From assembly GCF_003334305.1 (NCBI RefSeq), contig NZ_QOWS01000008.1: a stretch of 64,000 bases of DNA; one strand, written 5' to 3'. A program made the position numbers and the translations under genes. The notes under the pieces are model-generated. The model had not been told where the DNA came from. It worked only from the letters and a program-made list of their open reading frames with translations, and did no database searches. Origin of the DNA: Escherichia coli. Lineage in GTDB: Bacteria > Pseudomonadota > Gammaproteobacteria > Enterobacterales > Enterobacteriaceae. Positions 33,582-37,368 of this stretch are shown piece by piece; the first letter of the stretch is position 1; the number at the start of each line of letters is the position of its first letter.

Positions 33582-33808
33582 TGTTTGTACTCCCAAAGGT
33601 TCGCAACAATTTGTAAGCGTGTATTCTTAAAAAAGCTCACGTTCGTCACCAGCTAAATCTGGTATGAATTTCAGCCTAAATTGTTACAAAGCATATTAAA
33701 CAGCAGCTTAAGTATACAATTTATTCGGCGAAACATTATTGATTCTGTTGATATGATCACGTTATACCCAATGTGCGCATTATCAAACAGACAAAGGGAA
33801 TCAACGAG

Positions 33809-34381: not shown

Positions 34382-36703
34382 ATGATGAATGATTCGTTCT
34401 GCCGCATTATTGCGGGTGAAATTCAGGCGCGCCCGGAACAGGTTGACGCTGCCGTTCGCCTGCTTGACGAAGGGAATACCGTGCCGTTTATCGCACGTTA
34501 TCGTAAGGAAATCACCGGCGGTCTGGATGACACGCAGCTGCGTAATCTGGAAACGCGTCTGAGCTATCTGCGCGAGCTGGAAGAGAGACGTCAGGCGATC
34601 CTCAAATCCATTTCCGAGCAAGGCAAACTCACCGATGATCTGGCGAAGGCCATCAACGCCACCCTAAGCAAAACCGAACTCGAAGACCTCTACCTGCCCT
34701 ACAAACCTAAACGCCGCACCCGCGGGCAAATCGCCATTGAAGCAGGGCTTGAGCCGTTGGCTGACCTGCTGTGGAGCGATCCGTCACACACGCCAGAAGT
34801 CGCCGCTGCACAATATGTTGATGCCGATAAAGGCGTGGCAGATACCAAAGCCGCGCTGGATGGCGCGCGCTATATCCTGATGGAACGGTTTGCCGAAGAT
34901 GCCGCGCTGCTGGCGAAAGTGCGTGATTATCTGTGGAAGAACGCGCATCTGGTCTCAACCGTGGTGAGCGGTAAAGAAGAGGAAGGGGCGAAATTCCGCG
35001 ACTATTTCGATCATCACGAACCGTTGTCCACGGTGCCTTCTCACCGCGCGCTGGCGATGTTCCGTGGGCGTAACGAAGGCGTACTCCAGCTTTCGCTGAA
35101 TGCCGATCCGCAGTTCGATGAGCCGCCCAAAGAGAGCTATTGCGAGCAAATCATCATGGATCACCTTGGCCTGCGCCTGAACAATGCCCCGGCGGATAGC
35201 TGGCGCAAAGGCGTAGTGAGCTGGACCTGGCGCATCAAGGTGCTGATGCATCTGGAAACCGAACTGATGGGTACCGTGCGCGAACGCGCGGAAGATGAAG
35301 CAATCAACGTCTTTGCCCGTAACCTGCACGATCTGCTGATGGCGGCCCCTGCCGGACTGCGTGCAACGATGGGCCTCGATCCGGGTCTGCGTACCGGGGT
35401 AAAAGTGGCGGTGGTCGATGCCACTGGCAAACTGGTGGCGACCGATACCATTTACCCGCACACCGGACAAGCCGCAAAAGCAGCGATGACCGTTGCTGCC
35501 TTGTGTGAAAAACATAACGTTGAACTGGTGGCGATCGGCAACGGTACAGCTTCCCGCGAAACTGAACGTTTCTATCTCGACGTGCAGAAGCAGTTCCCGA
35601 AAGTGACCGCACAGAAAGTGATCGTCAGCGAAGCTGGCGCGTCGGTTTACTCAGCTTCCGAGCTGGCAGCGCAGGAGTTCCCGGATCTCGACGTTTCGCT
35701 GCGTGGTGCGGTATCTATCGCCCGCCGTTTGCAGGATCCGCTGGCGGAGCTGGTGAAAATCGATCCGAAATCTATCGGCGTAGGTCAGTATCAGCATGAC
35801 GTCAGCCAGACGCAACTGGCCCGCAAACTGGATGCAGTAGTAGAAGACTGCGTAAACGCCGTTGGCGTCGATCTCAACACCGCTTCTGTTCCGCTATTAA
35901 CCCGCGTGGCGGGCCTGACGCGCATGATGGCGCAAAACATCGTGGCCTGGCGCGATGAGAACGGCCAGTTCAAGAACCGTCAGCAACTGCTGAAAGTCAG
36001 CCGTCTGGGGCCGAAAGCCTTCGAGCAGTGCGCGGGCTTCCTGCGCATTAACCACGGTGATAACCCGCTGGACGCCTCTACCGTTCACCCGGAAGCCTAT
36101 CCGGTGGTGGAACGCATTCTGGCAGCAACACAGCAGGCACTGAAAGATCTGATGGGTAACAGCAGCGAACTGCGTAACCTGAAAGCGTCTGACTTTACTG
36201 ATGAAAAATTCGGTGTGCCGACAGTAACTGACATCATCAAAGAGCTGGAAAAACCGGGTCGCGATCCGCGTCCGGAATTTAAAACCGCTCAGTTTGCCGA
36301 TGGCGTCGAGACAATGAACGACCTGCAACCGGGTATGATCCTCGAAGGCGCTGTCACCAACGTCACCAACTTTGGCGCGTTTGTCGATATTGGCGTGCAT
36401 CAGGACGGCCTGGTTCACATCTCTTCATTGTCGAACAAGTTTGTGGAAGATCCGCATACCGTGGTGAAAGCGGGCGACATTGTGAAGGTGAAAGTGCTGG
36501 AAGTGGATCTTCAGCGTAAACGTATCGCCCTGACCATGCGTCTGGACGAGCAGCCTGGCGAAACCAACGCCCGTCGCGGCGGCGGTAATGAACGCCCGCA
36601 AAACAACCGCCCGGCAGCCAAACCACGCGGTCGTGAAGCGCAGCCTGCCGGTAATAGCGCGATGATGGATGCGCTGGCGGCGGCAATGGGCAAAAAACGT
36701 TAA
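34382..36703 (+). CDS. tex: Tex-family transcription accessory protein (YhgF), C-terminal S1 domain
   Basis: 773 aa ORF. Confidence 0.9.
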
Positions 36704-36784
36704 ACGCCCTGATTGACCCCTAAACCTGCGCGATAAGGTGTCCACGCCGCATCTGGCAACGAACGCCTTGTCTGACATAAAAGT

Positions 36785-36809
36785 GCCGGAGAATATCTCC
36801 GGCCTTTTT
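36785..36809 (+). terminator. intrinsic terminator after tex
   Basis: gccggag-aatat-ctccggc hairpin followed by cttttt. Confidence 0.6.
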
Positions 36810-37004
36810 ATTCCACAACCAAACTCATAATATATTCCGGCAATATTTATCACTTCATTAACAACTGAAACCTTAATTAAACATTAGCCAGTCCGGGTAA
36901 TTCACTATTCGAATTATATTTTCGCTGCGATATAACCTTGAGCCACATCAACATTGAGTCAGATTATTATTCAAACCAACATTCGCACACATTTTAAGTA
37001 TTGC

Positions 37005-37050
37005 TGATAGAAACCATTCTCATTATCATTGTGTTGTTGATTATTTAATC
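37005..37050 (+). promoter_or_regulatory. feoABC control region with Fur-box-like and FNR-like motifs
   Basis: AT-rich; ctcattatcatt resembles part of the Fur consensus; ttgattatttaatc is a weak FNR-like site. Confidence 0.3.
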
Positions 37051-37140
37051 TCTCCTTTGTTGGCAAATCATCTGGTCTCATGTCGCTGTCAAACGCCCCA
37101 TGAGGTAGTTATCCAGTTAATGAGAAACAAGTAGGCACCT

Positions 37141-37368
37141 ATGCAATACACTCCAGATACTGCGTGGAAAATCACTGGCTTTTCCCGTGAAATCAGCCCG
37201 GCATATCGCCAAAAACTGCTTTCTCTTGGCATGTTACCTGGCTCCTCTTTTAATGTGGTGCGCGTCGCTCCACTCGGCGACCCCATTCATATCGAAACCC
37301 GTCGTGTGAGCCTGGTATTACGCAAAAAAGATCTGGCCTTATTAGAAGTGGAAGCGGTTTCCTGTTAA
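37141..37368 (+). CDS. feoA: ferrous iron transport protein A
   Basis: 75 aa ORF. Confidence 0.9.

Follow-up and report, generated by a model that had tools for sequence, protein, structure and literature searches.

The feoABC control region in an Escherichia coli genome and the position of its FNR site

The 437 nt between tex and feoA in the window, i.e., the whole 64,000-nt stretch of E. coli DNA analyzed here, are very probably the known control region of E. coli feoABC, promoter included, behind a tex 3' flank in which the tex terminator follows a REP remnant. As a control region of feoABC it is ordinary and already known, and its regulation through Fur, FNR, and ArcA belongs to the textbook picture of E. 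coli. The use of this check lies in the FNR assignment, which is corrected to 36938-36951 (Table 1) from 37037-37050, where a preliminary description of the interval had placed an FNR-like element.

The tex-feoA interval and its core promoter

The gene context and the length of the gap had been described correctly: the stop codon of tex (yhgF) ends at 36703 and the feoA ATG stands at 37141. A 651-base query around the gap is 100% identical to E. coli strain CFSAN061769 and was matched in 5,426 of 5,426 complete E. coli genomes, four of them with less than 80% query coverage. In the urinary isolate E. coli EC488 (our locus L098; NZ_CP109874.1), an IS1 element lies just 3' of the tex terminator with its junction at about 36826 and rtcB next to it, while neither the feo promoter nor feoABC is present, which would fit an IS1-mediated deletion.

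Alignment to a K-12-type allele revealed differences in the REP-like stretch that follows tex, which is 19 bases longer in K-12, and at four single bases, of which 36853 is the last. No difference occurs between 36854 and the feoA ATG. Published K-12 maps can therefore be transferred to this sequence, and occupancy and regulation at the sites discussed here are taken from published K-12 experiments on identical sequence, with site positions, matrix scores, and conservation determined in the present analysis. Window positions equal MG1655 version-2 coordinates minus 3,501,044, which we checked using feoA (3,540,163 in NC_000913.3) and the FNR 14-mer listed at 3,537,982, i.e., 36938. For conservation, we used orthologous loci from 80 Enterobacteriaceae species that had been fetched through FeoA.

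Table 1. Features of the tex-feoA interval and its flanking genes, in window coordinates.
Feature	Position	Strand	Basis or remark
tex / yhgF coding sequence (Tex family protein)	34382-36703	+	ORF list; RefSeq, identical strain and K-12
Degenerate REP-like element gcgataaggtgtccacgccgcatctggca	36730-36758	.	Alignment to K-12-like allele; sub-threshold Rfam naRNA4
tex intrinsic terminator	36785-36811	+	Terminator scan; 8-bp stem with 6 G-C pairs, then T-run
ArcA direct-repeat site (K-12: TTGTTAATGAAATGATAAATA)	36844-36864	-	-191 to -171 from start; Park 2013 Tables S3, S4, S6
Candidate OmpR/RstA site TTATCAnTTCATTAACA	36847-36863		Overlaps ArcA site
Predicted NagC site ggtaattcactattcgaattata	36896-36918	.	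FITBAR table (PMC3098098)
Genuine FNR site TTGAGCCACATCAA	36938-36951	.	Myers 2013 Table S6; matrix rank 1; conservation
Distal weak Fur-like site, centre 36962	36953-36971	.	Matrix 7.6 bits, rank 4; Chen 2007 10.5 bits
-35 hexamer TTGCTG	37001-37006	+	17 bp before -10; inferred from sequence and start
Fur operator, two overlapping 19-bp 9-1-9 sites	37006-37030	.	Centres 37015 and 37021, 6 bp apart
-10 hexamer TATCAT	37024-37029	+	6 nt 5' of start; conservation
Transcription start	37035 (+/-1 nt)	+	EcoCyc start via Park 2013 Table S6
5' untranslated leader, 106 nt	37035-37140	+	Shine-Dalgarno-like TAGG at 37132-37135
TTGATTATTTAATC, earlier "FNR-like" element	37037-37050	.	At +2 to +15; neither FNR nor Fur site
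feoA coding sequence	37141-37368	+	ORF list; RefSeq annotation
feoB	starts 37385		After feoA

The AT-richness that had been claimed for the gap is real on average (40.0% GC compared to 52.4% for the window) though uneven. The first 97 nt (36704-36800), where REP remnant and terminator are located, have 54.6% GC, followed by 33.2% in 36801-37035 and 41.9% in 37036-37140. Rfam was searched at E<=1 in the window and at four orthologous loci. The REP-like element scores 19.1 bits for naRNA4 and thus falls short of the gathering score, which is 59.5. Among E. coli genomes, the gap varies mostly in the REP-like stretch at 36704-36770, and Salmonella arizonae carries a fuller REP pair in the same place (locus L009, 985-1052; 46 bits for naRNA4 with the same gathering score of 59.5). 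Across the terminator, whose hairpin occupies 36785-36803, the Salmonella sRNA STnc390 was matched on the minus strand (36771-36820) with 23.8 bits, where gathering requires 50; this match is absent at the four orthologous loci, two of them from Salmonella (L009, L017, L007, and L039), and we regard it as a chance hairpin match.

The core promoter was placed from the published transcription start and from conservation instead of a promoter scan, since a sigma-70 consensus scan of the gap found no promoter; its -35 hexamer matches TTGACA at only three of six positions, which accounts for the blank. The start itself follows from Park 2013, where the ArcA site at 3537888-3537908 is given as -191 to -171, which sets the start at 3538079 or window position 37035; as an independent source of start sites, the supplements of Kim 2012 contain no feoA entry. 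Within the gap, conservation is highest in 36999-37035. Across the 80 species, the -10 hexamer reads TATCAT in 67 species, TACCAT in eight, TATTAT in four, and TACGAT in one, so that only positions 3 and 4 change, and the -35 hexamer is TTGATG or TTGAAG in most other genera.

To call all 437 nt a leader, as the preliminary description did, is a misnomer, because only about 106 nt (37035-37140) lie downstream of the mapped start. This true leader is poorly conserved except for its first ca. 15 nt and the Shine-Dalgarno region. In a clade of Enterobacter, Lelliottia, and Leclercia (loci L041-L043, L049, L057, L061, L064, L070, L073, L074, L077-L080, and L082), it is around 65 nt shorter, with the core promoter ca. 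71 nt from the ATG compared to ca. 140 nt, and the spacing between FNR site and promoter is unchanged despite the short leader.

Fur, FNR, and ArcA sites

The preliminary description had quoted two strings, tcattatcatt and ttgat-N4-taatc, which are indeed found at 37020-37030 and 37037-37050, respectively. It had read the former as resembling part of a Fur box; matrix scan, ChIP-exo, and conservation all confirm the place, but the extent falls short because the string is only the right arm of an operator that spans 37006-37030. Counting matches to three Fur consensus strings (the 19-mer, the 7-1-7 form, and the ChIP-exo motif) located the best matches correctly at 37008-37033, though the 13/19 obtained there was equalled by 17% of dinucleotide shuffles and none of the counts was significant against such shuffles in DNA this AT-rich (p 0.17-0.39). 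In place of consensus counting, we used a matrix of 17 K-12 Fur sites, strong ones only, taken from the strong-cluster table (Table 4) of Chen 2007 (PMC2189734; bases taken from NC_000913.3). Fourteen of these sites are marked there as footprinted or gel-shifted, and all 17 show the 9-1-9 pattern aaTGAtAATnATTaTCAtt at their published centres.

With this matrix, the site centred at 37015 scores 11.7 bits and ranks first among 63,982 window positions (equalled in 3.6-5.1% of shuffles), while the overlapping site centred at 37021 scores 7.5 bits and ranks fifth. The scan, which had been proposed as a check of the Fur box, thus puts the feoA site at the top of 64 kb, though it is weak next to the reference sites with their 17.9-29.7 bits (leave-one-out). 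Taken as a pair phased by 6 bp, the two sites reach 19.2 bits, the maximum of the window, and 0.35% of shuffles equal this value (p~0.0035). Only three sites in the gap exceed 1 bit, with centres at 37015, 37021, and 36962, and the curated, footprint-based 24-site model of Chen 2007 (PMC2189734) agrees on all three, giving them 10.9, 13.4, and 10.5 bits, respectively, with a cut-off of 10.

Occupancy in vivo is documented by a Fur ChIP-exo peak of iron-replete MG1655 at 3,538,047-3,538,080 (PMC10164565), which corresponds to 37003-37036, covers the promoter from -35 through +1, and contains both Fur sites. A feoA-lacZ fusion is repressed by Fur under anaerobic conditions only, because the promoter needs activation by FNR/ArcA for this repression to become visible (PMC4676285). 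In the literature reviewed here, we found no Fur or FNR footprint on feoA promoter DNA, and none existed at the date of Chen 2007 (PMC2189734). No other block of the region is as conserved as the Fur operator. In 76 of the 80 species, the top Fur site within 500 nt 5' of feoA falls into the 37015 register, the median score being 18.8 bits. The operator overlaps the spacer and the -10 hexamer and abuts the -35 hexamer, from which repression by occlusion would follow naturally.

The distal Fur-like site is not conserved (orthologue median of -3.9 bits) and lies outside the ChIP-exo peak; we consider it specific to E. coli and of doubtful importance. Elsewhere in the window, the Fur ChIP-exo peaks of Gao et al. 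2023 include one at 3,534,739-3,534,772 in the ompR-greB intergenic region (33695-33728). The Fur matrix yields 2.4 bits at best in this region, so the peak is not accounted for by a canonical box.

Joint control of feoABC by Fur and FNR had rightly been proposed in the preliminary description and is long established; both PMC2189734 and PMC3688515 trace it to Kammler, Schoen & Hantke 1993. What the preliminary description had overlooked is the genuine FNR site TTGAGCCACATCAA, ca. 100 bases upstream of the element named in it. We scored FNR sites with a symmetrised matrix derived from 62 sites at ChIP-seq peaks in Table S6 of Myers 2013, with feoA left out; these bound sites score 12.1-21.8 bits. 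At 15.6 bits, TTGAGCCACATCAA equals their median and ranks first of 63,987 window positions. It is also the sequence that Myers 2013 (Table S6; PMC3688515) lists as the feoA site at an FNR ChIP-seq peak, with a PatSer score of 14.6.

In nearly all 80 species, the best FNR match 5' of feoA is the homologous site. A TTG(A/C)N-N4-(A/G)TCAA motif stands at the equivalent position in almost all of them, with at least 15 different spacers, and it lies 77 bp from the -10 region in 55 species and 76 bp away in 22, whereas promoter and ATG are separated by anything from 53 to 255 nt across species. Such fixed spacing in 77 of 80 species supports what would be a position-dependent role of the FNR site. 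Relative to the EcoCyc-derived start, the site is centred at about -90.5 (+/-1), which is not a class II position and would be compatible with class I spacing. FNR activates from -41.5 in class II promoters and from -61.5 or further upstream, in helical phase, in class I promoters. Most FNR-activated promoters carry their site at -41.5 (19 of the 23 in Myers 2013, with one at -60.5), which makes -90.5 atypical, and the same study describes FNR-dependent expression of feoA as masked under its iron-replete conditions (PMC3688515). Together, position and fixed spacing suggest far-upstream activation of a class I-like kind.

Further upstream, the ArcA direct-repeat site corresponds to an ArcA ChIP-seq site at feoA for which Park 2013 (PMC3798270) reported 3.7-fold activation. 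The overlapping OmpR/RstA candidate lies inside a DNA fragment shifted by OmpR in the EMSA of Gerken 2020 (PMC7315122), and both are part of a block conserved in 78 species. Position 36853, inside both the ArcA site and the OmpR/RstA candidate, is C in the window and T in K-12; about half of the 78 species have C, so the difference looks neutral. Directly downstream of the ArcA site, there is another conserved block, ctgaaaccttaattaaacattag (36865-36887), which may hold more ArcA direct repeats (TGTTTA on the minus strand, ca. 21 bp from the first) or a site for another factor. The NagC site is a computational prediction and poorly conserved between genera; NagC is among the regulators listed in Table S9 of Myers 2013 (PMC3688515).

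Alternative readings and a model of regulation

In the preliminary description, the FNR site had been sought in TTGAT-N4-TAATC, the string ttgattatttaatc at 37037-37050, which offers a perfect left half-site (TTGAT) and lies in a moderately conserved stretch, its core GATTATTTA being kept in 34 of the 80 species (which span Escherichia, Salmonella, Citrobacter, and the Enterobacter clade). The matrix scan that had been suggested for checking it refutes this reading: the element scores -13.6 bits compared to a minimum of 12.1 bits among the 62 ChIP-bound sites and, at rank 7245 of 63,987, is at background level. There is no acceptable right half-site, nor does this half come near ATCAA in any species, and the homologous stretches reach 4.4 bits at best with a median of -3.8. 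From +2 to +15, downstream of the start, FNR would repress and not activate, and the ChIP-associated site in the literature has another sequence; we thus give 37037-37050 practically no chance of being the feoABC FNR operator. The element is no Fur site either (-6.5 bits or less with the Fur matrix). It is unlikely, if conceivable, that TTGATTATTTAATC is instead the operator of a further feoABC regulator or a functional mRNA element at the 5' end and, as a separate part of the same tentative suggestion, that FNR at -90.5 is a rare natural case of class I type. For the genuine FNR site, one could also imagine a second, unmapped promoter starting near 36986 that would bring it to -41.5, in line with nearly all FNR-activated promoters being class II, and Kammler's second Fur box (the weak one centred at 36962) would then fall within this promoter. 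However, 36972-36981 (caaaccaaca) offers no -10-like hexamer in a poorly conserved stretch, a promoter scan finds nothing near 36986, the distal Fur site is not conserved, and the fixed spacing of 76/77 bp to the mapped -10 hexamer in 77 of 80 species points to coupling with the mapped promoter, which leaves the second promoter distinctly improbable.

Two further readings start from base composition and leader length instead of the FNR site. With only ca. 33% GC in 36801-37035 and Fur consensus counts that are not significant in DNA this AT-rich, the interval could be a silencing region of H-NS, IHF, or Fis or foreign DNA in which motif matches are by-products of composition. We consider this extremely unlikely, given that the region is found in all 5,426 complete E. 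coli genomes and shows discrete conserved blocks across 80 Enterobacteriaceae species, that Table S6 of Myers lists no enrichment of H-NS, IHF, or Fis over the feoA FNR site, and that shuffles matched in composition fall below the observed matrix ranks and phased-pair statistic. The leader, fairly long with its 106 nt and moderately conserved over the first ca. 15 nt, could in turn hold control at the RNA level through a riboswitch, an attenuator, an sRNA target, or a leader peptide. This is very improbable as well: the leader folds no more stably than shuffled versions (z = +0.63), Rfam at E<=1 finds no family in 37035-37140 (its only matches, at REP and terminator, have 19.1-23.8 bits and are far below gathering), and conservation is poor in the middle of the leader, which is also cut by ca. 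65 nt in the Enterobacter clade. RyhB is predicted to pair with the leader no more strongly than with shuffled versions of it, the tiny leader ORFs lack Shine-Dalgarno sequences and conserved starts, and effects of CsrA on feo have been judged indirect (PMC5694010).

The reading that we prefer, a single mapped promoter with Fur over its core and FNR and ArcA upstream, would work as follows. One sigma-70 promoter (-35 TTGCTG, -10 TATCAT) would fire near 37035 and give a 106-nt leader. Fe(II)-Fur would bind both 19-bp sites over the spacer and the -10 hexamer and, when iron is plentiful, probably repress by excluding RNA polymerase, as the position of the operator suggests. Under anaerobiosis, FNR would bind TTGAGCCACATCAA at about -90.5 and raise transcription, judging from its position as a far-upstream class I-like activator that may act via the alpha subunit of RNA polymerase. 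ArcA-P would bind its direct-repeat site, perhaps shared with OmpR/RstA, and likewise raise transcription.

Comparison with known systems

The sites of feoABC have been mapped by ChIP (PMC3688515, PMC3798270, PMC10164565) and its regulation has been measured (PMC4676285, PMC7315122), so that the present results have little importance beyond correct annotation. The conserved 76/77-bp spacing between FNR site and -10 hexamer in 77 of 80 species does offer a clean natural example for studies of far-upstream activation by FNR.

The closest known system is feoABC of E. coli K-12 itself (feoAp in EcoCyc/RegulonDB), which is the same locus and shares the Fur, FNR, and ArcA sites, the promoter hexamers, and the leader; the tex-feoA interval analyzed here differs from it in the tex 3' flank, where the REP-like stretch is 19 bases shorter, and in four single bases. 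Yersinia pestis has the same operon, also controlled by Fur (PMC5519574). However, its feoABC has two promoters with Fur repression only under microaerobic conditions, and the region shows no significant DNA similarity to that of E. coli and no control by FNR or ArcA (PMC5519574).

Like fhuA, fepA-fes, entC, and ryhB, feoA carries 9-1-9 Fur sites 6 bp apart over the -35/-10 region that are occupied under iron-replete conditions. Unlike these classical Fur-repressed promoters, its Fur site scores only 11.7 bits compared to 17.9-29.7, and a reporter is repressed only anaerobically. Similarly, feoA resembles nirB, narG, and dmsA in its high-scoring site of the TTGAT-N4-ATCAA type that is occupied by FNR in vivo, but while these are class II promoters with FNR at -41.5, the feoA site lies near -90.5, a rare geometry that is fixed across genera.
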